Virus record (IMG/VR): IMGVR_UViG_3300027895_000002
Coordinates: 1 to 44,976 of that record
DNA from: a virus
DNA length: 44,976 nt
Reading direction: 5' to 3' (one strand)
Numbering within the stretch: position 1 is the stretch's first letter; each line of letters opens with the position of its first letter. Position numbers and translations under genes: made by a program. Below the pieces are notes generated by a model. It did not search any database. It saw nothing but the letters and a program-made list of their open reading frames with translations, and was not told the DNA's origin. This document shows positions 3,551 through 38,212 of this stretch, in pieces.

Positions 3551-3858
3551 GGCGAAGGTCCTTTTGTCGGTAATGGGACGGGTGGAATAGCGGGAGTTCC
3601 TACTGCGTTAACTACATCGGCCTTAGCCTGAGTGATCGTCACAGTGGGTGTTGGATGTTGGGTTCTGGAATAGGCAGCATACCCTAACGAAGCAGCTCCT
3701 ATGGCATCCAAGACGTTATCGACGAAGAGCGCGATATCAGCGCTGCTGAAGGTATCTGCAATATGGAAGTGTACGAGTGCGCGGGTTACTGCTGCGACGC
3801 AGAGCATCTGCAGGATATGGGAGCGGTACCAAGGAATCGCAGATGGGGAATCATTCAT
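3547..3858 (-). CDS. Hypothetical protein with hydrophobic segments and a Pro-rich C-terminus (lysis accessory or spanin-like candidate)
   Basis: ATGA overlaps on both sides. Hydrophobic stretches ILQMLCVAAV and AIGAASLGYAAY; tail PAIPPVPLPTKGPSP. Confidence 0.45.
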   Translation of the reverse strand: MNDSPSAIPWYRSHILQMLCVAAVTRALVHFHIADTFSSADIALFVDNVLDAIGAASLGYAAYSRTQHPTPTVTITQAKADVVNAVGTPAIPPVPLPTKGPSP

Positions 3859-4247
3859 GCAAGTAAGATCCCTTGGTTTACCTGTGCGTCATTGTACGGG
3901 TTAGACCCGTTCTCATGAACTATGATTGCTGACACTAGAGGCAGCATCATGGCAGAGAACTGCACCACATCATCAGGTCCAATTGAGCATCGCTGACACA
4001 CGTCATTCACATAGGCGCTGGTGTCGTTCTCTGTCGAAGGTGCCCAGCGCGCTATCGCGTTCCTGATGGTGTCGATACCCTCACGTTCATAGCTCAGGAG
4101 GATCTTGGCAATAGCCCTGATGCCCCATTTCACGTCGGTGAACTGCACGAAGTCAGGATCAGTCTGTGTATCAGACTGGCCTTCCCAGGTCGCTCCCGGT
4201 ACTTTGCGGATATTACCGGGATTAAAATTAGATTCTCCGCGTGTCAA
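3855..4247 (-). CDS. Peptidoglycan hydrolase-like protein (endolysin candidate)
   Basis: N-terminal ESNFNPGNIR ... W.G ... F..F ... GIRA ... WAP..EN motif series. This resembles the phage muramidase-like family often annotated as structural protein P5. TTG start overlaps the upstream TGA. Confidence 0.55.
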   Translation of the reverse strand: MTRGESNFNPGNIRKVPGATWEGQSDTQTDPDFVQFTDVKWGIRAIAKILLSYEREGIDTIRNAIARWAPSTENDTSAYVNDVCQRCSIGPDDVVQFSAMMLPLVSAIIVHENGSNPYNDAQVNQGILLA

Positions 4248-4929: not shown

Positions 4930-6674
4930 TATTCCACAATGCAGTCCACCGTCCCTGTATAGGTTCCGGCGTTCCCAATCGTAAATCCTCCAGTCCCGGC
5001 ACTCGTGTAGTAAAAGGCCGCAGGAGGAGGAGTGCCACGAGCGGTCAGGGCGACCTGATAGGTGGTTCCTGCCAAGGTAGCACCATTCGGGAAACCCACT
5101 GTGGCGGTTGCCGTGCCTCCAGTAGGAGTCACCGGCTGAAAAGCCCCGGCCATGAGCTGGGCGAACTTCAACTTGGTAAAGAGTTGCACTCCGGTTCCAC
5201 CTACTGTCAAGCCACCGGCAAATAAAGCCCCACCCGCCCCGCCTTTGTTGAGGAAGAGCTGCCCGTTACCGCTGTAGGAGCCACCGGAGAAGTTACCCCC
5301 GCACCACGTACCCGCATTGGCATCGAAGATGTTCTGATTCTGAATGAGGGGCGAGAGCTGCCAGTAAGTTGCATTCGGGGGCATTTGATTGACGTTTGCC
5401 AGAATGCAGTAATACTGCAAGCCCTCCTTGACGAGTGCTCCACTGCCATAGGTACTCGCAGAGTTCCACGCGGCTCCCTGAGCGGCATAGGGTTGAAACT
5501 GTCCTACCGAGACGATGGGAGCATTGGTTCCGGTGGTCATGATTTCAGGTACCACCGCACCGGCATTAAAACTTACAATGAGATAGTCGATGCGGGTATT
5601 GGCGGCGTAGTAAATGGGAACCGCTCCGGATACGGGAGCCTCGATCTCTATGAACCCGACATGCCCCTCACCGATATTCACGCAGACCGTCGCCCCGTTA
5701 GCCGCAAAGCCCAGAGGGCCTGTGACCTCCAGTTGGTTGATCGCAATGCCAGAACCTAGAATGGAGACCCCATCGGTATTCAGGTCCTGAATGAACCCCA
5801 TCTCACCGATGTTGCACGTCATCGTCACCCCTTTGCAGCCGAAGTCCCTGAAGGTGATGTCGTCCATCCACGCTTCTGTCCCGTAGACCGTGGTGTCTCC
5901 TGCCAGATACCCGTAGGAATATGCAGTGGGAGTAGAGGCAGAGATGTTCCCATACATGCTCCATCCGGTGAGACGGATCTTCTGGGCGTTGGTCGCGTAA
6001 AATGCGATCCCTGTCGCTCCTGGTTTGCAGACAAGATTAGATTCCCACCTCCCCTGTCCGATCAACTGTCCCCCGGCAGGGCAGACGAGTTCCGAGACGA
6101 GATAGTTAAAAGGTCCTAAATAAGCAGGCTGTCCTACCAAAGACATCGCAGTATTGATCGGGATCGTCATATCGGTTCCGGTGGAACCGTTGATCGAGGC
6201 GTAAATGACACCCGAAGAGATGTAGCGCTCGGGATATCCCGGAGGGAAGGCGGTATTGGTCGGCGTAACGCTGTCGTTCTTTTCGACCTGAGTTTGGGGA
6301 TAAAGAATAGACCCCAAATACTGTGCGGTGAGAAGCTCGGTGAGGTCTGACGTCGTAATGATGCCCTGAGCGTAGGTTACGGCCGACTGGATACCGTTCA
6401 CCGTCCTGATGGCACTCGTCGGAGGATTGGTGTCGTTCGGAGGCGAGTAGACGAAAGTGTAGGTGAGTGCGGGGTCGAGCCATACCGTCGCAGACCCGTT
6501 GGAATCAAGCACAATGGGATTGGTGTTGAGCGTGTCCTGTGTGCTGTCGGTCCACGTAGATTGGGGAGTGGTGGTTCCCGAGATGAAGGTGAATAGCAGA
6601 AACCCCACAGCAGGCTGACCCGTGGCAGGGTTCAGAAACTGCAACTGCATCGTCGGGGAGATCGTCACACTCAT
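4926..6674 (-). CDS. Tailspike / tail fibre (receptor-binding protein)
   Basis: The N-terminus (QFLNPATGQP..G.LLFTF.SGTTTPQSTWTD...NPIVLDSNG) matches the common tail-fibre N-terminal domain pattern. Ser/Thr/Gly-rich beta-rich body. Its position after the ejection genes matches P22 gp9. Confidence 0.7.
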   Translation of the reverse strand: MSVTISPTMQLQFLNPATGQPAVGFLLFTFISGTTTPQSTWTDSTQDTLNTNPIVLDSNGSATVWLDPALTYTFVYSPPNDTNPPTSAIRTVNGIQSAVTYAQGIITTSDLTELLTAQYLGSILYPQTQVEKNDSVTPTNTAFPPGYPERYISSGVIYASINGSTGTDMTIPINTAMSLVGQPAYLGPFNYLVSELVCPAGGQLIGQGRWESNLVCKPGATGIAFYATNAQKIRLTGWSMYGNISASTPTAYSYGYLAGDTTVYGTEAWMDDITFRDFGCKGVTMTCNIGEMGFIQDLNTDGVSILGSGIAINQLEVTGPLGFAANGATVCVNIGEGHVGFIEIEAPVSGAVPIYYAANTRIDYLIVSFNAGAVVPEIMTTGTNAPIVSVGQFQPYAAQGAAWNSASTYGSGALVKEGLQYYCILANVNQMPPNATYWQLSPLIQNQNIFDANAGTWCGGNFSGGSYSGNGQLFLNKGGAGGALFAGGLTVGGTGVQLFTKLKFAQLMAGAFQPVTPTGGTATATVGFPNGATLAGTTYQVALTARGTPPPAAFYYTSAGTGGFTIGNAGTYTGTVDCIVEY

Positions 6675-7993
6675 GAGTAACTCACGTCTTTCGCGTAGCC
6701 GTGCTTCTGCAATTCCGGCAACTCGCTTTCAAGCTTTTCACCAATATCGTCCCGGTACATCATGTTCGGGATGTGGAGTTCCTTAACGGTTGAATAAGCC
6801 CTGTCGCAAGCCTGCCTTACGGTCTTGCCCATGCCTGTCACAACAGCAATATAGTCCCCTGTAGTCGTCCACAGATCCCGCTCCACTACCGCATCCCCGT
6901 CCATATCAGGCATTTTCTCGATCTTCACCGATTGCGGGGCAAGATACTTTTTGTTGGCTTCAGTCACGCCATAGATCGGAATGTCCGAAACCTCGGCTTT
7001 GGTCAGTTTGCTATTGGGATAGTCTGGTTGTGCAATCACTACCCCGCAAGCCACAGCAGGAGAGGTCTGCAAGGTGTCTTCCCCCTCGCAGGCATCAAGC
7101 ATCCACTGAACGGGATCGCCTTTGTGGGCGGCCTGCATGATATTGAAGGCAGGCCAGCCAAGACGGGTGGTGAACTCAAGCGGCCAAGCCTTGCCTTGCT
7201 TGTCCACAATACAGTTCACGTCAATATCCCCAAGGTGCTGCATCTCTACCAGAGCATCCTCCAGAGGATCTAACACTTCCTCGGCAAGCTTGGACTCCTC
7301 GGTGTATTTTAGAACCGTACCGGCTTCTCCACAGTTGGGTCCACAGTCTCCAGATAAGAGCTTCTTGAACTCCCAATTAATGTTAGGAGGTCCAATGAAC
7401 CCATCCGCTCCCATCCATCTGCTGACACCTAACTCTATGCCGTCAATTACCTCTTGGAGCATCACAGGTCCTTTAGAAGCCATGCCTAGTTTCTGCCACC
7501 TCTGTAAGCGTGCCACCATGTCGGCAGCGGACTTACTGACGTAAGAGAGTGATTTATCGTCCTCACTGCCGAGGGTCTTAAAGACATAACGGTCGGGCTT
7601 TGATCTGACGTGCTCTTCAGCTTCTTTGAGATTGGCGAACTCCTCCCATTCGGGTACGTCGATGCCGTGATCCGTGAAGAATTTCATTCCTACTGCACGC
7701 TCAACTTCCAGCTCTGCGGACTTCTTCGAGGGGCCGAATACCTTGACGCCCTGCTTTCTCAAAGCATCTAGCTTCGGCACGAATTGGTGATTGCCAGAAG
7801 GCACCACGAGGTCCGCCCACTTGACTGAGGAAAGCCAGTTCTCCACCCGCTCCACACCTTTGAAACCTTTTCCGGTCTCCTTGTGGTTCTCGGGAGCCAT
7901 CCAGATCCGTACCGTATGACCTGCTTTGACGCAGCGGATTGCGAAGGGGAGCATCTCGCCTACAGAATCCATTGAGAGTAGAAGCACCTTCAC
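6671..7993 (-). CDS. ATP-grasp enzyme, phosphoribosylamine-glycine ligase (PurD/GARS)-like
   Basis: Collinear with PurD over the full length. MKVLLL start; KVFGPSKKSAELEVERAVGMKFF (PurD: K.FGP...AA.LE.SK.F.K.F). GPNCGEAG in place of the NTGGMG loop; LEFTTRLGWPAF (PurD: IEFN.RFGDPE). C-terminal GDYIAVVTGMGKTV..A...AY......YRDDIG. Confidence 0.85.
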   Translation of the reverse strand: MKVLLLSMDSVGEMLPFAIRCVKAGHTVRIWMAPENHKETGKGFKGVERVENWLSSVKWADLVVPSGNHQFVPKLDALRKQGVKVFGPSKKSAELEVERAVGMKFFTDHGIDVPEWEEFANLKEAEEHVRSKPDRYVFKTLGSEDDKSLSYVSKSAADMVARLQRWQKLGMASKGPVMLQEVIDGIELGVSRWMGADGFIGPPNINWEFKKLLSGDCGPNCGEAGTVLKYTEESKLAEEVLDPLEDALVEMQHLGDIDVNCIVDKQGKAWPLEFTTRLGWPAFNIMQAAHKGDPVQWMLDACEGEDTLQTSPAVACGVVIAQPDYPNSKLTKAEVSDIPIYGVTEANKKYLAPQSVKIEKMPDMDGDAVVERDLWTTTGDYIAVVTGMGKTVRQACDRAYSTVKELHIPNMMYRDDIGEKLESELPELQKHGYAKDVSYS

Positions 7994-9435
7994 TTACCTA
8001 GCCGGTCCTGATACATGTCCGATAGCAGCGCTTTACGTACAAGAGGGCGCGCGACCATCCCACCAATCAGAGGTACACCCACGTGTGGGCTGTGCATTGC
8101 AGTCGCAACCGCACCGCCGATTCCCATCATCCCCTCAACCGCCCCCGTGGGGGTTTTGTTCTTGACATCATGAGCATCTCGGGTCACTTCCTTAAACTCG
8201 GTTGCCACATCGGCAATGAGCTTCTGATTCCCGCTCAAGGGAACCCCGAGGCTCTGAAGTCTAGCGAGCTTCTTAGCGGATACGTCCTCGCCCACCAACA
8301 CGTCCTCAGTCGTGGCAATCTTAGCTAGGGCCTGCCGGGCAGCACGAAACTTGGGAATAAGATCGGTATAACCCATAACCTGTGCGTGTCGGTCGATCTG
8401 TTCCTCTAGTGCTGTAGCAACCTGCAAGCGTGCGGCCGCCATTGCATTGTCCTTGGGAAGATCGGACTTAAACTCTCGGCGCGCATCCGCCCGCAGTTGC
8501 CGTATATGCATCACGGCGTCCTTAGAATCGAACTGCTTCTCGCGATAGGCCCGGCGCAGTTTGGCAACATCAGGGGTAAGACGATCAGCTCCCTTAAAGC
8601 TCTTACCAGGAGTCCTACCTATCGCATTAATGGCAGATTTATAAGCAGCGTCCGTAGGAACTGAGCCTATACCCTCAACCACCTTGTAAATCTGCTGGTG
8701 AGGTTTCTTAGCGGCATCTAAGGTGGATTGCTTCAGCCTCTCTCCGGGCTTAACTCCGATATCCTGAGCATTGAGCTTGTTGGTCGTAACCTGATTCTTA
8801 ATAGAAGCCTCGCTAGACAGACGAGGTGATCCAGTAACCCCCTCCACGGCAGTTCCTATCTTCCCGCCCGCTTCAGAAGGTTTCAGCACATAGCCCGCCT
8901 GTCGCGCCTGTTTCACCATTTCTGCGCTGCGTGTTAGGGGGGAAACTACCGGAGGTTTCCTTGCCTCCAGAGCCTTCTTACCACCGGCTACGTCAATAGC
9001 TGCTCTAGCTGTCTGGCCCAAGATCGGATGGCCGCTTTCCTCAAGCTTGTGAGGAACGTAATCTAGGGCCTTGCCGAGAGGCTCAGTGAGCGCCCCGACA
9101 TAAGCCGAAGCCGCCTTACCCGTTTCAGTCCGAGGCTCGTAGGTCATCGCGCTACGGACCTTTTCGCCCTTCTTCGGGTCTTGGGTCGCAACAGAGGTCG
9201 CGGCACCCGCTACATCGCCTACGAGGCTGGAGCCCATCTGGGCCGCCACCTCACCCGCCGCTACGGCAGAGCGCCCCACGCCAGCTATACCCGTGCCTGC
9301 GGCCTTGTTAACCGCTTCCCCGAGGCGATGCTCCTTATCAAAATAACCCTCTTCTGCCTGAGGCTGATAGTTCTGCCAGGGACCGCTGTCGGCCTGTGCC
9401 TGAGGTTTGTAATTGACCCAAGGTCCGTCAGCCAC
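7990..9435 (-). CDS. Internal virion / ejection protein candidate (P22 gp16 position)
   Basis: Helical, Ala/Lys-rich, 481 aa. N-terminal tandem GPW.NY.PQA repeat. Assigned by synteny after the adaptor/nozzle genes. Confidence 0.45.
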   Translation of the reverse strand: MADGPWVNYKPQAQADSGPWQNYQPQAEEGYFDKEHRLGEAVNKAAGTGIAGVGRSAVAAGEVAAQMGSSLVGDVAGAATSVATQDPKKGEKVRSAMTYEPRTETGKAASAYVGALTEPLGKALDYVPHKLEESGHPILGQTARAAIDVAGGKKALEARKPPVVSPLTRSAEMVKQARQAGYVLKPSEAGGKIGTAVEGVTGSPRLSSEASIKNQVTTNKLNAQDIGVKPGERLKQSTLDAAKKPHQQIYKVVEGIGSVPTDAAYKSAINAIGRTPGKSFKGADRLTPDVAKLRRAYREKQFDSKDAVMHIRQLRADARREFKSDLPKDNAMAAARLQVATALEEQIDRHAQVMGYTDLIPKFRAARQALAKIATTEDVLVGEDVSAKKLARLQSLGVPLSGNQKLIADVATEFKEVTRDAHDVKNKTPTGAVEGMMGIGGAVATAMHSPHVGVPLIGGMVARPLVRKALLSDMYQDRLGK

Positions 9436-10936
9436 CGGATTTCTCCCATGATTCCTTCTTGGAGGGGTCGCCCCCCTTATACCGATAACCCTGCTCCACA
9501 GCCCCTACGGCTGGCGCACCTGAGGGCTGTGCGGGCGCTGAAGGGGTGGAGGCATCCTTCCCCGTCACCCCAGTAAGGCTCTCCTCCACGCCACCCTTAG
9601 AAGCTTCTATGCCCTGTAGGACGGTTTTCTTGATCTGCTGGAACTGATCCTTGGTAATAAGATCCGGGATAACCTGTGCGGACTCATGCCTGGCGGCATC
9701 TGTCACCTGTCCGCCCTTGGATAGCACGATGGAGTATTCGGCCCTAAGCTCTGCCACAGCAGCCTTGTAGGCTGATAGCTTGGGGTCCGACTCCTGCTCC
9801 TTGCCCCACTTCGAGAACTCACCCGCCGCTTTAAGAGTAGGAAAGTCCACCGCATTGACGGCTTTCTCGGCCTGATCCAGGAATCCACCCGGTTTAGTGA
9901 TGGACTTCTCGACCGGCAATATCGCAGCTTCCCTGCGGCCTAAGACGCTGGCCTCGGTCTTTTCAGCTCCAAGCGAGAGCTGACCGGACTTCACCATGTC
10001 TGCGATCTCATCGGGACTCTTGCCGGGATTACGCGACAGCAAGCCTTGGAATAGCGCCTGTTGCTGAGCCTTGGAACGCATACCTGCAGGAACAGAAACG
10101 CCCCTTTCAGCTAAAGCCCCCATGAGGTCTCCGATCTGCCCCCCGAAGGAACCGGCATTCTGCTTCGCGATGTTGATGCGCTCTTGGCCCTGCTGCTCCT
10201 CGACTTTACGGTGTTGCTGCTCGCCCCGAAGGTTAGCCGCCTGCAAGGGTTGATTGGCTATCTCACCCTTGGTCCTTAGAGCATCCAGAGCATCTTTAAT
10301 CTGCTTAGTCCCCTGAGGCATTGATTTCCACACATCGTTCAAACGATCAAACGTGATCGGCATAGGCTGTCCGTTGGGGCCTTTGGCCGAAGTAAACCGC
10401 CCGAGAGATTGCAGCAGAATCTCCTTTAGCTTCGGGTCCATGTTCGGGTCGTCCTTGATATCGGCGGTCTCCTTGGCAATTGCTCCAATCGTCATGGCAT
10501 CGCGTGTTTTGGCGTCATACTTGAGCGCCCCCGTGTCAGTAGTGGCACCGGCAGAGGCCACGATGGCACCGACTTTCTGCGCCTGAAAGTCATGTGCAGC
10601 GCTGTAGAGCTCTAATTGGGCCTGCTGTTTTGCAAGCTCTCCTGATGCTGCTTGCTGGGAGAATTTGAGTAACTCCATCCCTTTGTCGGGGGAGACCCTA
10701 GCCACCTCCCCTGCAAGCTTGGAGGCTCCCTCGGGGGTGGAAAGATCGGCCCCCTTCTGCTTGAAGATCTTCGAGACTTCCTGCTCTTCGGCTTCCTGCC
10801 TCTTAGCTCCCGCAAGCTTCAACTGGTTCAACTGGTTCGTGTCGATCAGGTCCTTTAACTGGAATCCTTTCGACACGGCACCCGTCATATCGGCGTTATC
10901 GCCAATAGAGGCTATGGGACTGGGATCGAAGGCCAT
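9428..10936 (-). CDS. Internal virion / ejection protein candidate (P22 gp20 position)
   Basis: 502 aa, Q/K/A/E-rich and helical. Assigned by synteny. Confidence 0.45.
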   Translation of the reverse strand: MAFDPSPIASIGDNADMTGAVSKGFQLKDLIDTNQLNQLKLAGAKRQEAEEQEVSKIFKQKGADLSTPEGASKLAGEVARVSPDKGMELLKFSQQAASGELAKQQAQLELYSAAHDFQAQKVGAIVASAGATTDTGALKYDAKTRDAMTIGAIAKETADIKDDPNMDPKLKEILLQSLGRFTSAKGPNGQPMPITFDRLNDVWKSMPQGTKQIKDALDALRTKGEIANQPLQAANLRGEQQHRKVEEQQGQERINIAKQNAGSFGGQIGDLMGALAERGVSVPAGMRSKAQQQALFQGLLSRNPGKSPDEIADMVKSGQLSLGAEKTEASVLGRREAAILPVEKSITKPGGFLDQAEKAVNAVDFPTLKAAGEFSKWGKEQESDPKLSAYKAAVAELRAEYSIVLSKGGQVTDAARHESAQVIPDLITKDQFQQIKKTVLQGIEASKGGVEESLTGVTGKDASTPSAPAQPSGAPAVGAVEQGYRYKGGDPSKKESWEKSGG

Positions 10937-11670
10937 TACTGCGTCCCTTGCAGGGGATTGTTATAGGTGTATCCGCCCCCTCCGCTGATGGCCGGAACGC
11001 CACCAGCAGCGTATGCGCCGGGATCTGAGGGTAAACTAGACCCTGTCAGCCCCGCTAGGGTATTCGCTGTAACCCCAGCACCTATGCCCCCAGTAATGGA
11101 CTTGTCGATTCCGGCAATGGTGTTGATGTCTATGCCAGCGATGTTGTTACCCTGACTGATGAGGGCATTGCTGATATTAGATGCGCCCTGACCTATGTTA
11201 GAGGCGGTGTTGGAGGCTGCGGCCTGACCGAAACCTACCGCCTGTGCGGCGTTTCCTACTGCGTTCTGGTAGGTCGAATCCGCCAATCCTGTGGAAAACT
11301 GGTCTAAAGCCTGTAAAGTGTTTCCTGAGAGACCTAAGCCTTGAGCGGTGGCAGCATTCTCGGTCGAGGTGAGGCCTTGAGACTTGGCAAACTGGTAGCC
11401 CGGGGTGGCTGCTAGAGTCTTCTGAATACCCGCGCTGCCTCCCTTACCTAAGCCCAGTAGAGCCTCGTACTGGGGGATAGCAGCCTTGCCGAGCGCGGTA
11501 TAAGGGGCCTCCTGTGCTTCCTGCTGCTGGATCGCCCACTGTTGCTCATTCACCGCAGCGTTGGTGGAGGATTCGGTAGCCTGTGCCGCTTCGTGACCAG
11601 CAACCGCAGAACCCACCCCAGAGAGCACCCCTCCGGCTACCGCCGCAACTGCTGTCCATATCCCGCTCAT
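10936..11670 (-). CDS. Internal virion / ejection protein candidate, Gly/Ala-rich with a hydrophobic N-terminus
   Basis: MSGIWTAVAAVAGGVLSGVGSAVAG N-terminus and Gly/Ala/Asn-rich repeats. Assigned by synteny (P22 gp7/gp14 region). Confidence 0.45.
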   Translation of the reverse strand: MSGIWTAVAAVAGGVLSGVGSAVAGHEAAQATESSTNAAVNEQQWAIQQQEAQEAPYTALGKAAIPQYEALLGLGKGGSAGIQKTLAATPGYQFAKSQGLTSTENAATAQGLGLSGNTLQALDQFSTGLADSTYQNAVGNAAQAVGFGQAAASNTASNIGQGASNISNALISQGNNIAGIDINTIAGIDKSITGGIGAGVTANTLAGLTGSSLPSDPGAYAAGGVPAISGGGGYTYNNPLQGTQ

Positions 11671-12107: not shown

Positions 12108-12391
12108 GCCAGTGCTCCTGTGGCCGTAACCCAGTTAGTCCCGTTGTACCAGATCGGATGCCCCAGAGTGCCGTCAAAGAATACTTGCCCGATGTAAAGG
12201 TTTTTCGTGGGGCGGTTGGCCGTTAACCCGGTCTGTGCTAGGGGCGCAGTGACCCGATAGACCGATTGGAACCACGCCTGATAGTCGGGGGATAAATGTC
12301 CTGGTTTGCCTTTCTGATCGGGATGCAAAATACGAGGACTCTGAGGCACCGGCCCCAAGCCTTGAAGGATAGGATTGATATTGAAGGGCAC
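12104..12391 (-). CDS. Small tail protein (tail-fibre-like C-terminal motif), start re-assigned
   Basis: Track ORF 12104..12577 overlaps the upstream gene by 187 nt. A GTG at 12391 overlaps the upstream TAG and follows GAGG. The C-terminus LYIGQVFFDGTLGHPIWYNGTNWVTATG resembles a motif seen in phage fibre proteins. Confidence 0.45.
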   Translation of the reverse strand: MPFNINPILQGLGPVPQSPRILHPDQKGKPGHLSPDYQAWFQSVYRVTAPLAQTGLTANRPTKNLYIGQVFFDGTLGHPIWYNGTNWVTATGALA

Positions 12392-13827
12392 TAGCCTAAC
12401 CTCGCGGCGGGTTGTCTCTCGGAGAGCTTTATCGCCCCTTCGGTAATCACAAACTTCACAGGGTCGGTCATTCTGATCCTGAATACATGGTCTCTCGCAG
12501 AACCAAAGCGCCGCCAGCTCACCCGGTTCAAATACTGACCCTGTGCTCCCAATGGACACCATCTCTGTCCGCTCCACGTCCTGCCATTATCCCTGCTGTG
12601 CTCGCAGGAGACCATTGGATTGATCCCCTGACCCGTCGTAAGTCCTACCCCTGTCTCCATGTCGAGGTACAGAAGGTTGACCCGGATGCGGTTGAAGTTG
12701 GAGAGGACATGTCGAGTGACGATCTCCCTCACAATCATCTGGCCGTTATCCGTGTAAAGGCTCGAACTCATCTCATAAATCTGGTTCGTCTGGTAGTCGG
12801 ATATGAAGTTCTTTCCCGCCGCGTAGGTCGAGAGATTGCCCCAATGGCGGGTAGGGGAAAGAGAGTTGCCGGTCTGCACCTCGCTCAAAATCCCTGTTGA
12901 ATTATCGTAGATCCACGAACGGTTAGCAGTAGGAAAGGTGATCTGGTACATGATGTGGTGGTCCTGCTGGTAGGTCAGGCACACCGCATCGGAGACCGTT
13001 GAGAACCTGTTCCAGATGTACTCCGTATCGGCATCGGATATGACTTGTGGTGAGTAATTCGAGAGCTTGACGAGCTGCACAATCCCCTGCTTCGTAATGC
13101 CTAAAAAGATGATCGACTGATCCGCATGAGCACGGGAAAATACTGCCGCCAGTCCCCACTCGTTGTAAGCCGATAGAATGGGCTGAAACGGTTGGGGTGT
13201 TGCTCCGACGTTCTGCCAGAATTCCTGATGCTGACCCGCAAAGATGATGAGGATGCCGTTTAGTTCATCTGCCGCAAGGATCGTATCTTCGTTGGACGCC
13301 GCATCCGCAAAAGCAAGCGCATTCCACGTCGAGCCGTCAAAGGCATTCGACACCCAGAAGGTCTGCGTTCCGGGTTGTTCAGCGACGAAAAACCCCGAAC
13401 AGAAAGTGACAGTTCTCGCTCCTTGGGCCTGCCACGGGACAATCGGCTGAAAGGTCTGAGTCTTGATATTGAAGTAATATCCGGTAAGACCATCGACCAC
13501 CACCACCTGAGTAGGGGAGGTCTGTATCGTCGCAAGCGTTGCGGAGCTATTGACCGGACCACTCGCTAAAGTCGCTCCCGTTACAGGATTGACCTGAAGG
13601 AACTGATTATTTGCCACAGCATAGAGATAGTTAGCATCTCCCGATAGAGCGCGAAAGGGAGAGGTGCCTACCGTGAACATGGGGTTTAAACCAGGTGTCC
13701 CGTAGATCGCGACCTTGCTCTTATCCCCGTCAGGACGGTTCTCGTAGTAGACATTGAGGCGACGCTGACGGGTCACCACTCGGCTTTTACCCGTGGTGCC
13801 AGAGCCAAAGAGCGGAATGGATTTCAT
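12391..13827 (-). CDS. Tail nozzle / DNA-stabilisation protein (P22 gp10-like position and N-terminal pattern)
   Basis: N-terminus SRVVTRQRRLNVYYE...KVAIYGTPGL follows the pattern of gp10-type tail hub proteins. Beta-rich, 478 aa. Lies directly after the adaptor gene. Confidence 0.55.
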   Translation of the reverse strand: MKSIPLFGSGTTGKSRVVTRQRRLNVYYENRPDGDKSKVAIYGTPGLNPMFTVGTSPFRALSGDANYLYAVANNQFLQVNPVTGATLASGPVNSSATLATIQTSPTQVVVVDGLTGYYFNIKTQTFQPIVPWQAQGARTVTFCSGFFVAEQPGTQTFWVSNAFDGSTWNALAFADAASNEDTILAADELNGILIIFAGQHQEFWQNVGATPQPFQPILSAYNEWGLAAVFSRAHADQSIIFLGITKQGIVQLVKLSNYSPQVISDADTEYIWNRFSTVSDAVCLTYQQDHHIMYQITFPTANRSWIYDNSTGILSEVQTGNSLSPTRHWGNLSTYAAGKNFISDYQTNQIYEMSSSLYTDNGQMIVREIVTRHVLSNFNRIRVNLLYLDMETGVGLTTGQGINPMVSCEHSRDNGRTWSGQRWCPLGAQGQYLNRVSWRRFGSARDHVFRIRMTDPVKFVITEGAIKLSERQPAARLG

Positions 13828-14831
13828 GGCTCGTAGGGACTTCCAGAGTCCCTTTGAAAGTAGAACGATGTGACTTCCGCATCCTGCTGCTGGGCGAAGG
13901 CCAAGGCTTCTGAGAGGTTCTCCTTCATTTCATCGGTCCACGAGGCATCGAACATTCCGCAGATCTCTCTGGAAAGTCCCCAGCACAAAGGCCGATACCA
14001 CTGCTGGGGGTAAGCAGGATTATCGACGGGGTTCGTGATATCGGAGATGGGATTCAGGTAGACGATATGTAAGAGCTTCGTGACGTCCTGTGCTCCACCC
14101 ACATCGATATAAAGCTGACCGTTTGAGGTCGCGGTAGAGGTGCCGATCTGGCTTTCGTAATATATCGCGGTAGGATCGGACTGGAAAGTGTTGCTGGTCT
14201 TTGTCGGTAAGAGTTCATAGTCCTCCAGCGTCATTTTGTTCATCGGGGTATCGTTGGCGAAAGTATCCCTCAGAATACAGGTCTCGATCTGCAAGGGTCT
14301 TTGCTGTTTCGTCGTGTAGTTAAAGACCTGTGCATTGGCGTTCGCATTACCCGTAAGAGGTGCATTCAAGCCCACTAACCCGTTGCTATAAGAGCTGACA
14401 GTCGTCCAGAAGAGATCTGTTCCTATGAGGATGCCGATGTAGTCATTCTGATTCATGACGGTAGGAGTGTTGACCGAGATATTGGTCGCCCCCTGACCGG
14501 CATTGGAGGCTAAAGTCGTTGAGTTATAGGTGAGGTTCGGAGGGTTTCCGGTAGTAAAGCCCGCCCAGTTATCTCCTGTGGGTCCCAGTTGATACTGATA
14601 CTGAGTGAAGCCCAAGAAGAGATCTCCCCGGGCTCGGCTCCACATTTTAAGCCCCGGGGCGAAATCCTGCTTTGCCATCCACGATTTGACGAGGAGATTA
14701 AGCTTCCTCAGACAGTCGTTGAATTCCTGTGCCGTGGGAATTTCCGCTTCTCCAATGGCTCCGATATTCAACATGGCTTCATTGATGATATCGGTGGCCG
14801 TGACCGTGAAGATATAAGTGCCGGTAATCAC
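13824..14831 (-). CDS. Head-to-tail adaptor (P22 gp4-like)
   Basis: The N-terminal helix pattern DIINEAMLNIGAIGEAEIPTAQEFNDCLRKLNLLVKSWMAKQ matches the gp4-type adaptor signature (I..AL..LG......P.........L..M...W). Synteny supports the call. Confidence 0.6.
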   Translation of the reverse strand: MITGTYIFTVTATDIINEAMLNIGAIGEAEIPTAQEFNDCLRKLNLLVKSWMAKQDFAPGLKMWSRARGDLFLGFTQYQYQLGPTGDNWAGFTTGNPPNLTYNSTTLASNAGQGATNISVNTPTVMNQNDYIGILIGTDLFWTTVSSYSNGLVGLNAPLTGNANANAQVFNYTTKQQRPLQIETCILRDTFANDTPMNKMTLEDYELLPTKTSNTFQSDPTAIYYESQIGTSTATSNGQLYIDVGGAQDVTKLLHIVYLNPISDITNPVDNPAYPQQWYRPLCWGLSREICGMFDASWTDEMKENLSEALAFAQQQDAEVTSFYFQRDSGSPYEP

Positions 14832-16405
14832 GCCCTCAGTTCCTTCTTCGTGGCGTCAGTGATTAAATTCCACACTGGACGGTAGATCTGATCGAAGCTG
14901 ATGTCCTGCTGGCACTGTGCGGTCGAGGTTTCTGCTTTCTGGCAGTGCGACCAGTTGTAGTGCATTTGATGGCAGGCGGGAGCTTCGTTCCTACCCCTTC
15001 CCGGACAGTGAGTGTTCTCGCTCCAGATCGGATATACGTTCGTCCAGTCACGCGTGAGGTTCTCGTGGGTCGAGTGGGAAAGTAATACGACTTTGGGATA
15101 ATCGAATTGGGATGCGGCATTCATCAAACCCGTTTCGGGTCCTATCGCCATATCAACCGTTGCCATGAAGGCAAGCGACTGTCGGATAGACCACTGACCA
15201 CAGGTTCGGTGGACACGTTTCTCCTTCTCCCAGCCTTGTTCAAGAATCTTGGCCGCCTCTCCTCCCAGTAACACGACATCGACGTTGGGGAAGTCGAGCA
15301 TCAGGGATGCGATGACGTTATCCAAACAGGCATGTGTTTTGTGGACCGAGGAACCCGCAAGCGGCCACGCCACCACGTACTCGCCCATCTTCGCCCGTTG
15401 TTTCTTCGCCCACGTCCTCTCATCCTCGGTGGGGAAAAAGCGGATCTGAGGCTTATGGGGTACTTCTGCAATGGCATGCTGCAATTCCAGATAGTTCATG
15501 TTCATGATCTTGTGGCGGATCGCAGGAGGCCAGTGGTGCTGTGTTCTCCCGGGTATGGCGAGGAGCGACCCCTCCACGCTTTCCGACAGGTTCACCCATT
15601 TGTCGTATTTCTTCCGATGATAATCCCAATACTCACCCAGAAGATGATTAGGGACTTGGTCCTTGTCCTGATAGTAAAAAGCGTCGATGTTCGGGTCGTT
15701 ACGCACGACTTCATCACCCGGAGGAGAGGTGTAAAGCGTGACGTGGTAACCTTGGGCTTTGAGGCCCGCGAACACCGACGAAGCCTGAAGGAGATCCCCG
15801 AATGCCCCGTAGCGGACTAACCCACAGGACTTCTTAGGAGGCTCCTTCTTCTTCCAACTCTCCGTCTGTCCGGAGTTCATCTTCCTGAATACGAAGTAGA
15901 GAGAGTATTCCCTCTCCTGATTCCGTTTCTGAAAGTCCACAAGATCCCAGCTACCTGCCCCTCTCATGTACTGGATCACCCGTTCATAGTTCACGTTCCA
16001 CTTGTGATCGGGATTTGCCCCTTCCTCTCCCACCTTCGGGTACTCGTCCTCATCCGGAAGGTAGAGCGTCAAATATCCTTTTGGCTTGATGATCCTCATC
16101 CAATCCCTTAAAGCTCCTGTGACTCTTTCGGGTGCAATGTGCTCCAGCAAGTGAGAGGAAAAACAGAAGTCCATCGAATTAGAAGCGAACATCTCCATGC
16201 GCTCGGCGCTCGGAACGCAGATATCGGGTTTTATGGGATGACCGAAAAGAGCTTCATCGGCCTTGTTATCGACCCCGATGAAATGGGGATAGAGCTTCTC
16301 GATGCCACAGCCGATATCAAGTCCTCTGCCCCTTGTGTATTGCACGATTTCCCACTTCACTTTCGCGGATTCGTTGCACTGGGGGTCGGTTATTTTCCAA
16401 GTCAT
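14828..16405 (-). CDS. Fusion protein: N-terminal class I SAM-dependent methyltransferase + C-terminal glycosyltransferase family 9 (heptosyltransferase-like)
   Basis: MT domain (aa 1-185, about 15851..16405): LDIGCGIEKL (motif I), GVDN, MDFCFSSHLLEH, IIKPKGYL. GT9 domain (aa 190-525, about 14828..15850): LVRYGAFGDLLQASSVFAGLKAQGYHVTLYT, NDPNIDAF, VVAWPLAGSSVHKTH, VVLLGG, SLAFMATVDMAIGPETGLMNAA, then a Cys/His-rich tail. ATGA overlap with the adaptor gene. Confidence 0.85.
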   Translation of the reverse strand: MTWKITDPQCNESAKVKWEIVQYTRGRGLDIGCGIEKLYPHFIGVDNKADEALFGHPIKPDICVPSAERMEMFASNSMDFCFSSHLLEHIAPERVTGALRDWMRIIKPKGYLTLYLPDEDEYPKVGEEGANPDHKWNVNYERVIQYMRGAGSWDLVDFQKRNQEREYSLYFVFRKMNSGQTESWKKKEPPKKSCGLVRYGAFGDLLQASSVFAGLKAQGYHVTLYTSPPGDEVVRNDPNIDAFYYQDKDQVPNHLLGEYWDYHRKKYDKWVNLSESVEGSLLAIPGRTQHHWPPAIRHKIMNMNYLELQHAIAEVPHKPQIRFFPTEDERTWAKKQRAKMGEYVVAWPLAGSSVHKTHACLDNVIASLMLDFPNVDVVLLGGEAAKILEQGWEKEKRVHRTCGQWSIRQSLAFMATVDMAIGPETGLMNAASQFDYPKVVLLSHSTHENLTRDWTNVYPIWSENTHCPGRGRNEAPACHQMHYNWSHCQKAETSTAQCQQDISFDQIYRPVWNLITDATKKELRA

Positions 16406-25756: not shown

Positions 25757-26118
25757 TAGTGAAACGACCCCTCTTTGCGCCTCACCCACGAACGGGGGAC
25801 GACAGGTAAAGAGCCATCCCACGGACCCCTCTTTAAGCCAAAGCACTCAAGGAGCTGTCCTCCAAATTCGATTGCAGTATGCCGCACTGCATGGGGGGTA
25901 CCGAGCTTCTCACGGGGAAGTAGAGAGCTAAAGCCTTCACGTCCGATCACGCGGGCTACTTCGCTGGCAATGGCAAGATGCCTTACCACCAAACCTCTTC
26001 CTTGAAATCCAACGATCCAGGGATGGTTTGCGTACGCATCGTTGAGAGCCTTACCAATGTCCATTGCCAACTGAGCATCGGAAGCTTCATCCGCATCACC
26101 GATTTCAATGATGTTCAC
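25756..26118 (-). CDS. Hypothetical protein upstream of the portal gene
   Basis: 120 aa; ATGA overlap with the upstream gene. Confidence 0.5.
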   Translation of the reverse strand: MNIIEIGDADEASDAQLAMDIGKALNDAYANHPWIVGFQGRGLVVRHLAIASEVARVIGREGFSSLLPREKLGTPHAVRHTAIEFGGQLLECFGLKRGPWDGSLPVVPRSWVRRKEGSFH

Positions 26119-35651: not shown

Positions 35652-35801
35652 TCAGTACGGTTCTCCCCAATACGGACGGTTCACCGCCATCCATACTATG
35701 CCGCCCACCACCAAAGCCACAACACCAGCAACAACCAACACGACCTTGGGCAAAGATGAAATCGCCAAAGCCGCCATAACCCAAACAGCAATTAGAATCA
35801 T
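35652..35801 (-). CDS. 49-aa 2-TM membrane micro-protein between hldA and hldC (below the ORF-track cutoff)
   Basis: My own translation: MILIAVWVMAALAISSLPKVVLVVAGVVALVVGGIVWMAVNRPYWGEPY. Its ATG overlaps the hldA TGA (ATGA) and is preceded by GGAGG. Confidence 0.55.
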   Translation of the reverse strand: MILIAVWVMAALAISSLPKVVLVVAGVVALVVGGIVWMAVNRPYWGEPY

Positions 35802-36586
35802 AATGCCTCCAGAAGCTCATTCTTTGAACATGTAGCTGTTCCTGTCTTTCGGACCACAACACCAGCAGCATGGTTCGCAAGACGCGCGGCCTCTTCAATC
35901 CTCATGCCGCCGCATCCCAATACCGCCGCAACCACGGCAACCACCGTATCTCCCGCTCCGGTCACATCGAATACCTCTCGTGCAACAGCGGGGTAATTAA
36001 CCTTGGCATTCTCCTTCCAGAGAGTGATCCCCTCAGGTCCCCTCTTTTCCATGATTACCGGAAACTCCTTCCGTGCGGAGACTACCCCGGACAATTCCTT
36101 TGCGTTTGGGCAAATAACCATTGCCCCTCGATACTTATCCCAATGAGTTCCCTTGGGATCGACAACTACCAAGCGCCGGTATTTCCTCGCTGCAGAACAC
36201 ATCTCCGGCGTCAGCATCCCCTTGGCGTAGTCCGAAAAAACAATCACATCGCTTTGCGATTCACGCGCTGCTTGCAGCTGTTCTTCCGTAGGACTCGCAA
36301 GGATATCTTTATCTACCCTGAATAACTGCTGATGCCCCACCATGTAGCGATGCTTGGTGGATATCTCCTTGGCGAAGATCGTGTCTACCTGACAGCCTAA
36401 TGCCTCTAAATTAGCCGCGACATTCGCAGCACCACCCGGACGGGCTTTCTGTGAATCCTCTATGAATATCGGCACCGGAGCTTCAGGACTCAATCGGTCC
36501 ACATGGCCGAAATGGTACAGATCCCTTAATGCGTCACCAATGACGAGTACCCGCACGTTTTTGAACTTTTCGATTAGGTCTCGCAT
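35798..36586 (-). CDS. hldA: D-glycero-beta-D-manno-heptose 7-phosphate kinase (RfaE/HldE domain I, PfkB-type sugar kinase)
   Basis: VLVIGDALRDLYHFGHVDRLSPEAPVPIF....ARPGGAANVAANLEALG, FSDYAKG, VVVDPKG..W.KYRGA, DVTGAGDTVVAVVAAVL and ANHAAGVVVRKTGTAT are all collinear with E. coli HldE domain I. It is shorter than the E. coli domain (262 aa). Confidence 0.9.
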   Translation of the reverse strand: MRDLIEKFKNVRVLVIGDALRDLYHFGHVDRLSPEAPVPIFIEDSQKARPGGAANVAANLEALGCQVDTIFAKEISTKHRYMVGHQQLFRVDKDILASPTEEQLQAARESQSDVIVFSDYAKGMLTPEMCSAARKYRRLVVVDPKGTHWDKYRGAMVICPNAKELSGVVSARKEFPVIMEKRGPEGITLWKENAKVNYPAVAREVFDVTGAGDTVVAVVAAVLGCGGMRIEEAARLANHAAGVVVRKTGTATCSKNELLEAL

Positions 36587-36755: not shown

Positions 36756-37079
36756 TCAAGCCTCTGATGGGATCAGCCTCACACAATCTTCAGGATCATC
36801 GTGGCTTGACGCTTCAACCACTGTACCGGGCACCAAACATCTCAATCTGTGGCATCGGCCAGAAGGAATAATAGCATGTGAACCGGCTTTCAGCTCCAGT
36901 GTTTTACCCTGCATTTCAAGCATAAAGTGACCGCTTGAGACGTAGAAGCACTCGTGTTTGAGTTCGTGGAAATGCAGGCTTGAGGCGATAGGTTTCTCGT
37001 AGACCAGAAGCTTCATGCAGTAACTTTTGTTGTGGATCAAGAGCTCGTGCCCCCAAGATTTGTCTACTCGCTCAACCAC
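36756..37079 (-). CDS. Cupin-fold protein, phosphosugar (mannose-6-phosphate type) isomerase-like
   Basis: KSWGHELLI..KSYCMKLLVYEKPIASSLHFHELKHECFYVSSGHFMLEMQGKTLELKAGSHAIIPSGRCHRL fits the cupin pattern WG.E......Y..K.L......S.H.H..K.E...V..G..........L..G....IP....H. GTG start. Confidence 0.65.
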   Translation of the reverse strand: MVERVDKSWGHELLIHNKSYCMKLLVYEKPIASSLHFHELKHECFYVSSGHFMLEMQGKTLELKAGSHAIIPSGRCHRLRCLVPGTVVEASSHDDPEDCVRLIPSEA

Positions 37080-38212
37080 GCCTTAAGTTCCTTGACGTGC
37101 TTTGACCATGTGCGCTCTCTTCTCAAGAATTGCGTATCAGAGTTTTCAAAGTTGCCGTATGGGTCGGCGTACCTTAAAGCTCGCACGTAGCGATGCACAT
37201 GCTCCAGAATTTCATCAATTTCATCCGGATCGGACTCATACCATTCCAAGCTCGTATCTGGGAAAAAGTACTCGCTCGATGCTGGGATAGGGGTCTGTCT
37301 GGTCAAACAGTGTCCTAACTGGGCCAAATCCTTCATCCCTGTGTGATAGCCGTAAATAACAGGCACCCCACAGGCCATAGCCTCCATCACCGGCAGGCTC
37401 TGACAGCTCTCACACCTCGAAGGGGCTAACATGACGTCCATCTCCCTCAAGATAGGAGGTAAGCAGTAATTCGGCACCACCCCCAGATCAATGACTTTAG
37501 CGGGGTCTATGCCGTTATCGTCTGCCCATCTCGAAATGTCTAATCCCTTCTCGTTAAGCCACAGGGGAGCGTCTGTGAGCCCTTTAAACCCGTTAGCCAT
37601 GTCCGCATGAGGGCTCTGCCATAGGGTCACCAGACGCGCCTCCGGGTGCTTTTGGACGAAGCGCTTGAATGCAAGCAAAACCACATCTTGGGCCTTGCGG
37701 TACTCGACTTTCCCAGCAGAGTAGATGTAGAAAGCCTCCGGCAAAGCTCCTGACTTAGATCCGGGACAGAATAGGTTCGGGTCAATGCCCTCATGAATAA
37801 CTTTGACCTCTCGCCCTGTGGCATTTTCGAGTATCTCCTTGTTCCACGATGAACCTGTTAACAAGTGGGTGTAGCGGGAGAGTTTATCAATGGCATCCCG
37901 GGTGTCTGGTTTCTCCACGATCACCCTTCCGACAAGAGTTTTAGGGCCTTCCTTCGAGCCCTGAAGGTCATTCCCCACAGGATCTATCCACACACAGTCG
38001 TCCGTGTACTCGTACTTCCTGGAAATGGCTTTGAGGACACTCCTGTAATGCAAGGCATCCATCCCCATGAAATGACCGTGTTCCAAGGGATATGGGGTGT
38101 GAACCTCATAGTCGGGATCATTGGCTAGTTGGGCAATGAGATTGCTTCCCACCACCCCCCAGCCTCCATAGGCGTGGACGCCCCAGTTAAGGATTAGTTG
38201 TTTCTTAGCCAC
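37064..38212 (-). CDS. GT-B fold glycosyltransferase (family 1/4-like)
   Basis: C-terminal signature MLAPSRCESCQSLPVMEAMACGVPVIYG (E..........EAMA.G.PVI). 382 aa. Confidence 0.75.
   Translation of the reverse strand: MAKKQLILNWGVHAYGGWGVVGSNLIAQLANDPDYEVHTPYPLEHGHFMGMDALHYRSVLKAISRKYEYTDDCVWIDPVGNDLQGSKEGPKTLVGRVIVEKPDTRDAIDKLSRYTHLLTGSSWNKEILENATGREVKVIHEGIDPNLFCPGSKSGALPEAFYIYSAGKVEYRKAQDVVLLAFKRFVQKHPEARLVTLWQSPHADMANGFKGLTDAPLWLNEKGLDISRWADDNGIDPAKVIDLGVVPNYCLPPILREMDVMLAPSRCESCQSLPVMEAMACGVPVIYGYHTGMKDLAQLGHCLTRQTPIPASSEYFFPDTSLEWYESDPDEIDEILEHVHRYVRALRYADPYGNFENSDTQFLRRERTWSKHVKELKAWLSE

Follow-up and report, generated by a model that had tools for sequence, protein, structure and literature searches.

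What is a relative of phosphoribosylamine-glycine ligase (PurD), an enzyme of purine biosynthesis, doing between the ejection-protein genes and the tail fibre/spike gene of a podovirus? The question is posed by IMG/VR record IMGVR_UViG_3300027895_000002, whose 44,976 nucleotides (the whole stretch analysed, hereafter the window) represent a nearly complete ~45-kb podovirus genome of 55% G+C. The open reading frame (ORF) concerned had been pointed out in an earlier note made from the sequence alone, and is confirmed here as 440 codons at exactly positions 6671-7993, with the minus strand, which the note did not give, now added. The explanation favoured here, with a probability of roughly 0.6 and based on sequence comparison and a structural model, is that the product (referred to below as the ligase) is a competent, PurD-descended ATP-grasp carboxylate-amine ligase that does not make glycinamide ribonucleotide (GAR), that belongs to the core late genes of the phage, and that would act on a substrate of cellular type.

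Descent from PurD is evident at several levels, and the similarity noticed earlier lies far beyond chance. The Pfam models GARS_A (1.1e-9, 38.9 bits against a gathering threshold of 27) and GARS_C (3.9e-11, 43.6 bits against 34.8) both match above threshold, with GARS_N (0.0023, 19.1 bits against 29.5) falling below it, and a sequence search of the PDB recovers PurD chains at E values of 1e-25 to 1e-9. The AlphaFold2 (AF2) model of the ligase, with a mean predicted local distance difference test (pLDDT) value of 95.9, adopts the complete four-domain N-B-A-C fold of PurD, and Foldseek against the PDB gives PurD for each of the best 15 matches of this model (E 4e-33 to 3e-26), at template modelling (TM) scores of 0.70-0.77 normalised to the query. 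Other ATP-grasp structures, those of biotin carboxylase, PurK and PurT, follow far behind at E ~1e-17 and TM 0.55-0.63; they share ATP-grasp chemistry via an acyl- or carboxy-phosphate, and N260 of the ligase stands at the position of PurT Glu267, but there is no match at the sequence level. With PurD itself (EC 6.3.4.13; PDB 2YW2, 1GSO and 2QK4), the ligase is collinear over the four domains (TM ~0.75) and shares the ATP-binding Lys, the hinge, the ribose-binding Glu, the basic pair equivalent to K216/R217, E286, R290 and the RxDIG motif, whereas sequence identity is ~20-25%, and PurD is encoded in a pur operon whereas the ligase gene lies in a phage ejection cassette. No family in PHROGs matches the ligase protein.

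Ancestry does not extend to the diagnostic features of GAR synthetase. Against TIGR00877, the curated NCBIfam equivalog for PurD, the ligase scores 116.6 bits where the cutoff is 288, and comparable scores are obtained for a Paraburkholderia prophage copy (110 bits) and for the distant family member P0216 (121 bits). The PROSITE GARS signature PS00184, quoted in PMC3261824 as R-[LF]-G-D-P-E-x-[EQIM], is broken in the ligase, where it reads RLGWPAFN, with Trp in place of Asp and Ala in place of Glu; the signature Asp is missing from every motif-spanning member among the top 150 family representatives. The two altered loops to which the earlier note had drawn attention are exactly as described, GPNCGEAG corresponding to residues 218-225 (nt 7319-7342) and RLGWPAF to residues 277-283 (within nt 7145-7177). 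From these comparisons the family is almost certainly descended from PurD and no longer a GAR synthetase, in agreement with the earlier view that the gene is not a plain purine auxiliary metabolic gene (AMG), since the equivalog cutoff and the signature both fail and, as set out below, the substrate contacts are lost.

The fate of individual active-site residues was followed in an alignment of 59 family members (28-74% identity) with four bona fide PurDs, with PurD residue roles transferred from the human GARS paper (PMC2978367). What is retained is the machinery for ATP and acyl-phosphate: PurD E102, K145 and B-loop K153 correspond to E96, K139 and K147, hinge E187/E188 to Q180/E181, ribose-binding E194 to E187, K216, R217 and N226 to K210, K211 and N220, E286 and R290 to E273 and R277, and R416/D418 to R414/D416. 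Across the 59 members, E96, K139, E208, K210 (58/59), E223, G225, D258, E273, T275, R277, P281, R414 and D416 are invariant or nearly so. In particular, the ATP-binding Lys K139 (59/59, as in PurD), hinge Q180/E181, ribose-binding E187 and acyl-phosphate R277 are invariant or conserved in at least 95%, as is G185, with Q180, G185 and E187 aligning with E187, G192 and E194 of PurD. In the B-loop only the Gly and the Lys (K147) of GLAAGK survive, and pLDDT falls there to 64, as expected of a mobile loop.

The contacts to glycine and phosphoribosylamine (PRA), which in human GARS are Arg13, Asp217, Arg292, Asp295, Glu297 and Arg385 (PMC2978367), are for the most part replaced or deleted in the ligase. 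Arg292 is kept as R277 and Asp217 is still acidic as E208 (invariant; Asp214, the glycine-amine ligand, in PurD), but Arg13, the phosphate-binding Arg of GGREH in the N-domain loop, is replaced by E13, Asp295 by W280, Glu297 by A282 and Arg385 by Y381. In addition, the PGN motif (32-34) is deleted. The proposed general base of PurD, D293, has become W280 (W, Y or F family-wide), E295 is variable, and in the metal-ligand E-x-N motif E273 is kept while Asn (N288) is Thr275 in 56/59 members; the conserved Asn260, Gly in PurD, occupies another metal-ligand position of ATP-grasp enzymes, that of the first metal ligand (Glu267) of PurT. Several replacements are family-specific and extend to a clade of candidate phyla radiation (CPR) bacteria discussed below: E223, where PurD has Gly (G229), is found in 55/59 phage and 30/30 CPR members, D258 and N260 in 55/59 and 53/59 phage members and each in 29/30 CPR members, and position 381 is Tyr in 45/59 phage members and Phe or Tyr in CPR members. 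The family also has a 13-residue insert (357-369) relative to PurD, and a C-terminal extension, modelled as a helix over residues 421-430, in which L428 (55/59) and G432 (58/59) are both kept in the CPR clade. The PurD glycine and PRA contacts are in this way replaced by a conserved set comprising E208, E223, D258, N260, T275, W280, Y381 and H26, W53 and W59 of the N domain, and because the replacement residues are themselves conserved, the active site appears to have been re-specified rather than to have decayed. The idea that the N domain had turned acidic to accommodate a cationic amine was dropped, as the net charge of residues 1-100 is the same as in PurD.

The loss of the substrate contacts, together with retention of the ATP and acyl-phosphate machinery, makes a different carboxylate-amine ligation, as proposed in the earlier note, the natural reading. 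In such a reaction, ATP would phosphorylate a carboxylate to give an acyl-phosphate on the ligase. The carboxylate probably belongs to an amino-acid-like acid, given that the residue which binds the glycine amino group in PurD is acidic and has its counterpart here in the invariant E208. The acyl-phosphate would then be attacked by an amine other than a sugar phosphate, since every phosphate contact of PurD to PRA is gone, and this amine may sit in the remodelled, aromatic-lined pocket formed by W280, Y381, E223 and D258.

The position of the gene is as distinctive as its active site. On the minus strand, the order is portal (SU10 type), scaffold, major capsid protein, a methyltransferase-GT9 (MT-GT9) fusion, an adaptor-like gene and a P22 gp10-type tail hub, followed by two small genes, the gp7-like gene, a 502-aa and a 481-aa gene, the ligase, a 582-aa fibre/spike and the lysis genes (Table 1). 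The neighbours named in the earlier note are as stated: the ejection gene matches PHROG 598, the 481-aa protein is 31.5% identical over 311 aa to the 'putative internal protein C' of the cultured Xanthomonas phage PBR31 (E 3e-32), and the downstream gene has a PBR31-like tailspike N-terminus. No Pfam or PHROG match is found for the 481-aa protein, which carries an N-terminal tandem motif, GPWVNYKPQA...GPWQNYQPQA. The tail hub is 32% identical to tail tubular protein B of PBR31, and in that phage internal protein C directly adjoins the tailspike, with no ligase gene between. The ATGA overlaps previously claimed for both sides hold for the downstream side, and four-nucleotide coupling holds for both; the upstream overlap is GTGA, because the ligase gene starts with GTG, and its closest homologues likewise begin VKVL... 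from GTG.

Table 1. Features of the ligase gene, its product and associated genes in the window
Feature	Position	Strand	Remarks
PurD-derived ATP-grasp ligase gene	6671..7993	minus	440 aa; GTG start, TGA stop; from ORF list and translation
Start/stop overlap (GTGA) with upstream internal-protein gene	7990..7993	minus	Read from sequence
Stop/start overlap (ATGA) with downstream tail fibre/spike gene	6671..6674	minus	Read from sequence
N-domain loop DSVGEMLP, residues 9-16	7946..7969	minus	Replaces PurD GxGGREHA; R11 (E. coli) aligns with E13
ATP-binding Lys139 and B-loop GSEDDKSL, residues 142-149	7547..7579	minus	PurD has GLAAGKGV
Hinge/adenosine motif QEVIDGIE, residues 180-187	7433..7456	minus	PurD has EEFLxGxE
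Phosphate/carboxylate-substrate loop E208-F-K-K...G218-P-N-C-G-E223-A-G225	7319..7372	minus	Family-specific Glu223
D258-V-N260	7214..7222	minus	Family-specific; PurD has Y-A-G (Y271/G273)
Catalytic motif E273-F-T275-T-R277-L-G-W280-P-A282-F	7145..7177	minus	Replaces PurD ExNxRxGDPE
Tyr381	6851..6853	minus	Replaces substrate-contacting PurD Arg383 (human Arg385); from alignment
C-terminal extension, residues 421-440	6674..6733	minus	Family-specific helix and G-[YFW]-A motif; PurD ends earlier
Tail hub (P22 gp10/'Phage_stabilise'/tail tubular B type)	12391..13827	minus	PHROG 578, E 7.9e-85
gp7-like ejection protein	10936..11670	minus	PHROG 598 'DNA ejection', E 9.5e-23
Internal (ejection) protein B-position gene, 502 aa	9428..10936	minus	Assigned by synteny only
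Internal (ejection) protein C homologue, 481 aa	7990..9435	minus	Coupled to ligase gene by overlap
Tail fibre/spike gene, 582 aa	4926..6674	minus	N-terminal 75 aa 41% identical to PBR31 tailspike, E 5e-13
MT-GT9 fusion	14828..16405	minus	
HldE-domain-I-like heptose-7-phosphate kinase	35798..36586	minus	
GT4	37064..38212	minus	

The order of hub, gp7-like gene, a ~500-aa gene, a gene of 500-1537 aa and the ligase is found again in many viral contigs of ~40-45 kb, whose bins include Acidobacteriota, Acetobacteraceae and Methylococcaceae. It also recurs in the prophages of Paraburkholderia sp. C35, of P. rhynchosiae WSM 3937 and of the Rhodanobacteraceae isolate ZG21-1, and in genomes of lytic appearance whose replication modules differ considerably (MW202796 and L006; loci carrying the ligase are cited by L numbers and family representatives by P numbers). 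The arrangement of ejection genes, ligase and tail fibre/spike thus recurs in dozens of genomes. Among 71 loci with a clear ligase start, a same-strand ORF lies upstream in 68, with an overlap of exactly four nucleotides in 50. Of the 47 loci with at least 9 kb of upstream sequence, 42 have the hub and 37 the gp7-like gene, and in 29 a homologue of the 502-aa gene, the second of three genes running from the gp7-like gene to the ligase, occupies the same position. The downstream gene varies, being a fibre/spike, a small ORF or replication genes on the opposite strand; fibre/spike-homologous N-termini follow in 53/77 loci, and the L071 counterpart of the fibre/spike carries Peptidase_S74. In every locus compared, conservation of the ligase exceeds that of the tail hub (49/49), of the gp7-like protein (46/46), of the adaptor (39/39) and of both other internal proteins (37/37 and 26/26). 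The ligase gene would accordingly be described as a core late gene of the tail-hub/ejection cassette, presumably co-translated with the last internal virion protein.

Other enzymes are found in the same region of related phages. In L006, a 44.5-kb circular viral contig, the third internal protein, directly upstream of the ligase and overlapping it, is 1537 aa long and contains an ART-PolyVal domain (positions 5391-10004). A GNAT is present in 16/47 related phage loci and an Asp/Arg beta-hydroxylase-like cupin in 18/47, and in L001, L002, L006, L008-L012 and L028 one or both lie between the tail hub and the gp7-like gene; neither has a sequence-detectable homologue in the window. Enzymes embedded in ejection cassettes look like a recurring theme. 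An obligate partnership between the ligase and a GNAT in phages was rejected, given the 16/47 figure and the presence in PBR31 of a GNAT without a ligase.

Small additional ORFs are seen immediately upstream of the ligase in some loci. In one subclade (L098-L103, L108 and L109), a 121-aa ORF with an HELVEAYLC motif and no Pfam match lies between internal protein C and the ligase, with four-nucleotide overlaps on both sides; with its HELVE motif, it was rejected as a carrier. In L032, the same slot holds a 154-aa, Cys/His-rich ORF (HHCDN), which by eye only resembles an HNH endonuclease. None of the neighbouring proteins was seen to provide an acceptor or carrier with a conserved acidic C-terminus of the LysW or S6 kind, the frequent terminal Gln, Lys or Glu in these proteins being explained by the ATGA or GTGA overlap and the Shine-Dalgarno sequence, which force an NNA or NNG codon. 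A complete podovirus cassette of bacterial type with a 60% identical ligase is also present in a 942-kb contig labelled as a Thermoplasmata archaeon (L009, CAVVLX010000006.1), which could be a case of mis-binning, chimeric assembly or an unexpected host.

The family to which the ligase belongs is large. A word-indexed search returned over 120 clusters (63-78% identity), the majority of them on contigs of 30-45 kb, and an exhaustive search of representatives returned 255 clusters (50% identity level) at E<1e-30; in IMG/VR, at least 597 loci carry the family. The motif E-x-T/S-x-R-x-G-[WYF]-P is present in all motif-spanning members of the top 150 representatives, with a few divergent members having another residue at the aromatic position, and GPxTGExG is present in most of the 150. 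Among phage genomes in INPHARED, tblastn found no cultured carrier and one true member, the uncultured MW202796 (40% identity, ORF unannotated), the remaining matches being bacterial purD in contaminated records; a megablast of the 8-kb region against INPHARED gave no match, and BFVD yields nothing structurally close among viral proteins (best E 3e-10, TM 0.46).

Full-length representatives are either stand-alone proteins of ~420-450 aa or intein-bearing. About 10% are 757-816 aa long owing to inteins with LAGLIDADG homing endonucleases (P0123, P0133, P0140, P0144, P0146, P0147, P0153, P0154, P0157, P0163, P0221, P0230 and P0243). Three insertion sites are used, two in the GPxTGExG loop (after GPN and after GExG) and one after ExT (T275), and all lie within the two catalytic loops. 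Inteins favour conserved functional sites of important genes, and their occupation of these loops argues both that the loops are functional and that the gene is important. Among the 150 representatives, no convincing fusion of the ligase with a portal, MuF or internal protein was found. The apparent fusion in P0179, a Gly/Ala-rich N-terminal stretch of 390 aa joined to the ligase, was rejected as an artefact, since it comes from an error-prone long-read contig on which genes are fragmented and the C-terminus is frameshifted, and the C-terminal extension of ~110 aa in P0234 (DxDxT-like motif) is uninformative, having no Pfam or PDB match and stand-alone homologues in unrelated contexts.

Relatives of the ligase are also encoded on cellular chromosomes, in lineages that include CPR bacteria, Bacteroidota, alphaproteobacteria and haloarchaea. 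A large Moranbacteria (CPR) clade, on contigs of up to 970 kb and among housekeeping genes, is monophyletic in a neighbour-joining tree and nested among distant family members; CPR bacteria typically lack de novo purine synthesis. Other copies on large replicons occur in Chondrinema litorale, Roseomonas haemaphysalidis, Sphingomonas daechungensis (split) and Halarchaeum sp. These relatives share the ExTxRxG[WYF]P and GPxTGExG motifs and the family-specific residues, namely R99, Y151, D158, Q180, N206, E208, E223, D258, N260 and T275, aromatic residues at 280 and 381, W53, W59 and the C-terminal L428/G432. Because these pocket residues are common to the cellular relatives, the substrate is likely to be a general component of cells.

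The neighbourhoods of the cellular copies differ from the phage cassette but have features of their own. A GNAT lies directly downstream, overlapping the ligase in Chondrinema and in CPR L114, and nearby in L113; the phage and cellular GNATs show generic similarity only. On the Chondrinema litorale plasmid (L120, 8301-10733), a YkgJ-type CxxCxxCC protein, the ligase and the GNAT form an operon in which the last two overlap, and the same YkgJ-ligase pair, with the YkgJ-type gene likewise upstream, is found on a DPANN-binned contig (L020, 8163-10207). In all four CPR loci examined (L022, L112, L113 and L114), a conserved protein of ~205-245 aa is encoded immediately upstream or one gene away; it has a membrane anchor at the N-terminus, a domain rich in Cys and a tail of Glu/Asp/Cys repeats that is extremely acidic. 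An EamA permease and a SET-domain protein (twice) also recur near cellular copies, the CPR loci among them.

Modification of a virion protein, one of the substrates the earlier note had suggested, is weakened by these relatives, as chromosomal homologues keep the family-specific pocket residues where no virion is made. For the amidation of a sugar acid, the other example given in that note, the evidence speaks neither for nor against. The chemistry of the ligase probably does not need a virion, and judged from the conserved pocket the most likely substrate is a metabolite or macromolecule of cells in general, not a structure peculiar to phages. A slight preference is given here to an enzyme that works in the infected cell's cytoplasm on a substrate derived from the host. 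Several observations weigh against this explanation. The canonical Mg-ligand Asn of ExN is Thr and the B-loop is rewritten except for its Lys, so that catalysis is perhaps reduced or altered; the cellular homologues are ~28-33% identical, and could act on a different substrate despite the common pocket residues; in L090 the ligase and fibre gene are encoded on one strand and the ejection genes on the other; and the coupling to an internal protein, together with the ART-PolyVal domain of the neighbour in L006, fits packaged cargo at least equally well.

Packaging as cargo, whereby the ligase would be loaded with the internal proteins, ejected with the DNA and set to modify a host target covalently with host ATP right at the onset of infection, in the manner of T4 Alt and the polyvalent-protein effectors, is a possibility to be taken seriously, if one well short of even odds. 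The gene directly follows internal protein C, with the four-nucleotide overlap found whatever gene comes after it, ART-PolyVal is a hallmark of injected effectors (PMC5512222), the GNAT and Asp/Arg hydroxylase show that other enzymes lie within the same cassette, and the C-terminal extension, which is conserved in the family and lacking in PurD, might be used for docking. Yet no reliable carrier fusion is seen, that of P0179 being a frameshifted long-read contig, four-nucleotide overlaps are common across phage late operons, and conservation exceeding that of structural genes is unusual for host-takeover or anti-defence effectors. Only tentatively can the ligase be proposed as a fourth ejection protein that is injected and covalently joins an amino acid or amine onto some conserved target in the host, such as a ribosomal, nucleoid or envelope-precursor component, which the cellular homologues would modify too; if so, phages would be known for the first time to inject an ATP-dependent amide ligase as cargo, and host takeover would gain a new kind of chemistry. 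Less of the evidence agrees with a modifier acting before or during assembly, which would ligate an amino acid or amine to an ejection or tail protein or amidate a sugar acid on a glycosylated virion protein, and which is considered unlikely. Co-expression with structural genes and the presence in the window of MT-GT9 (upstream of the ligase in 31/47 loci and itself within the tail operon), an HldE-type heptose kinase and GT4 speak for it, whereas MT-GT9 is not found in the distant carriers MW202796 (fully annotated), L006, L101 and L108, the same pocket occurs in homologues from settings without virions, and the neighbouring proteins were seen to have neither a conserved acidic C-terminal tail nor an obvious acceptor motif.

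The two remaining explanations would deny the ligase a new reaction. A dead pseudoenzyme, recruited as a structural or chaperone part of the ejection apparatus, would account for the location among structural genes, the change of the Mg-ligand Asn to Thr and that of the B-loop from GLAAGKG to GSEDDKSL, but is improbable in view of ATP-grasp catalytic residues that are invariant over 28-74% identity, replacement residues that are conserved in cellular homologues as well, and inteins located precisely in the catalytic loops. Even less credible, to the point of being nearly discounted, is a true PurD making GAR, as assumed by automated annotation: the Joint Genome Institute (JGI) names many homologues 'phosphoribosylamine--glycine ligase', and GARS_A and GARS_C do exceed their gathering thresholds, but the TIGR00877 and PROSITE results, the loss of R11, the PGN motif, D293, E295 and R383, the absence of other pur genes nearby and the tail/ejection operon location all stand against it. 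Viral 'purD' is listed as a purine AMG in PMC11097641 and PMC12647753, the genes concerned being ones that may or may not belong to the ligase family.

A competent ligase with a cellular-type substrate would have partial parallels in known systems. In RimK with RimI/J/L, and in Ngg of N-acetylglutaminylglutamine amide (NAGGN) synthesis, an ATP-grasp enzyme is paired with a GNAT in making or modifying small peptides or the tails of proteins. The cellular ligase copies followed by a GNAT, and the many phage cassettes that hold one, resemble these pairs, but RimK and Ngg belong to the RimK branch whereas the ligase belongs to the PurD branch. PurZ of Z-genome phages is a repurposed PurA homologue acting on nucleotides and encoded among nucleotide-metabolism and replication genes. 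By analogy, the ligase may likewise represent a purine-pathway fold taken by phages for another reaction and easily mis-annotated as a housekeeping enzyme; unlike PurZ, its gene lies in a structural/ejection operon of phages that may be without a replication module of their own, and nothing ties it to DNA modification. T4 Alt and the polyvalent-protein effectors (Iyer et al. 2017, PMC5512222) are similar in being enzymes encoded among virion or ejection genes, but the ligase is stand-alone rather than a domain of a giant protein, and is far more conserved than typical effectors. A search of that survey (PMC5512222) by term finds ATP-grasp RNA ligases as the only ATP-grasp enzymes, and no PurD-type ATP-grasp amidoligase. 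The ATP-grasp genes of LUZ24-like phages, which form early-gene amidoligase clusters, were considered as relatives and are unrelated. Searches of the literature found no PurD-like or ATP-grasp enzyme in ejection modules and no account of the ligase family, which on present comparisons would represent ATP-grasp ligases of PurD lineage whose specificity is new, as is their conserved place in phage genomes.

Annotation is affected in a direct way, as at least 597 viral contigs and hundreds of protein clusters are automatically named 'phosphoribosylamine-glycine ligase', and virome studies count purD as a purine AMG. For this family, a purine reading is almost certainly wrong. The ligase is probably important for infection by widespread, uncultured podoviruses of soil and freshwater, because it is conserved above the tail hub, linked to the ejection cassette and host to inteins at three catalytic-loop sites. 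Occurrence of the remodelled pocket in CPR bacteria, Bacteroidota and haloarchaea, in many cases beside a GNAT gene, points in addition to an undescribed ligation reaction of general cell biology. Cultured carriers exist in the prophages of two Paraburkholderia isolates, and in Chondrinema and Halarchaeum.

The glycosylation genes of the window form a separate subject. The earlier note had tied the ligase to them, and this tie is not borne out: from the distribution of the heptosyltransferase-like MT-GT9 described above, the ligase tracks the ejection cassette and not the sugar genes. The HldE-like kinase matches TIGR02198 at 242 bits, below the cutoff. Together, MT-GT9, the HldE-like kinase and GT4 suggest a phage heptose glycosylation system, possibly directed at virion proteins or at host lipopolysaccharide.

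Several other features of the window, all on the minus strand, are recorded here. Between the large terminase and the portal region, a 1548-aa ORF (28462-33108), without a Pfam or PHROG match, is unusual in size and position for a podovirus of ~45 kb. Just upstream of the portal gene, a 355-aa protein (26115-27182) combines He_PIG (Ig-like) and PASTA domains, the latter being typical mainly of penicillin-binding proteins and of kinases for Ser/Thr. Two candidates for a second receptor-binding set, in addition to the 582-aa fibre/spike, are encoded upstream of the tail hub: one protein has a K1-lyase_C domain (16415-17722) and the other is glycine-rich and fibre-like (17970-19151). In the case of the lytic function, a 130-aa protein (3855-4247) is homologous to internal protein B of PBR31 over the middle of the latter (residues 264-359; PHROG 873 'endolysin', also 'tail injection transglycosylase'). 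In the phage of the window, the lytic domain is encoded by a separate small gene outside the ejection cassette.

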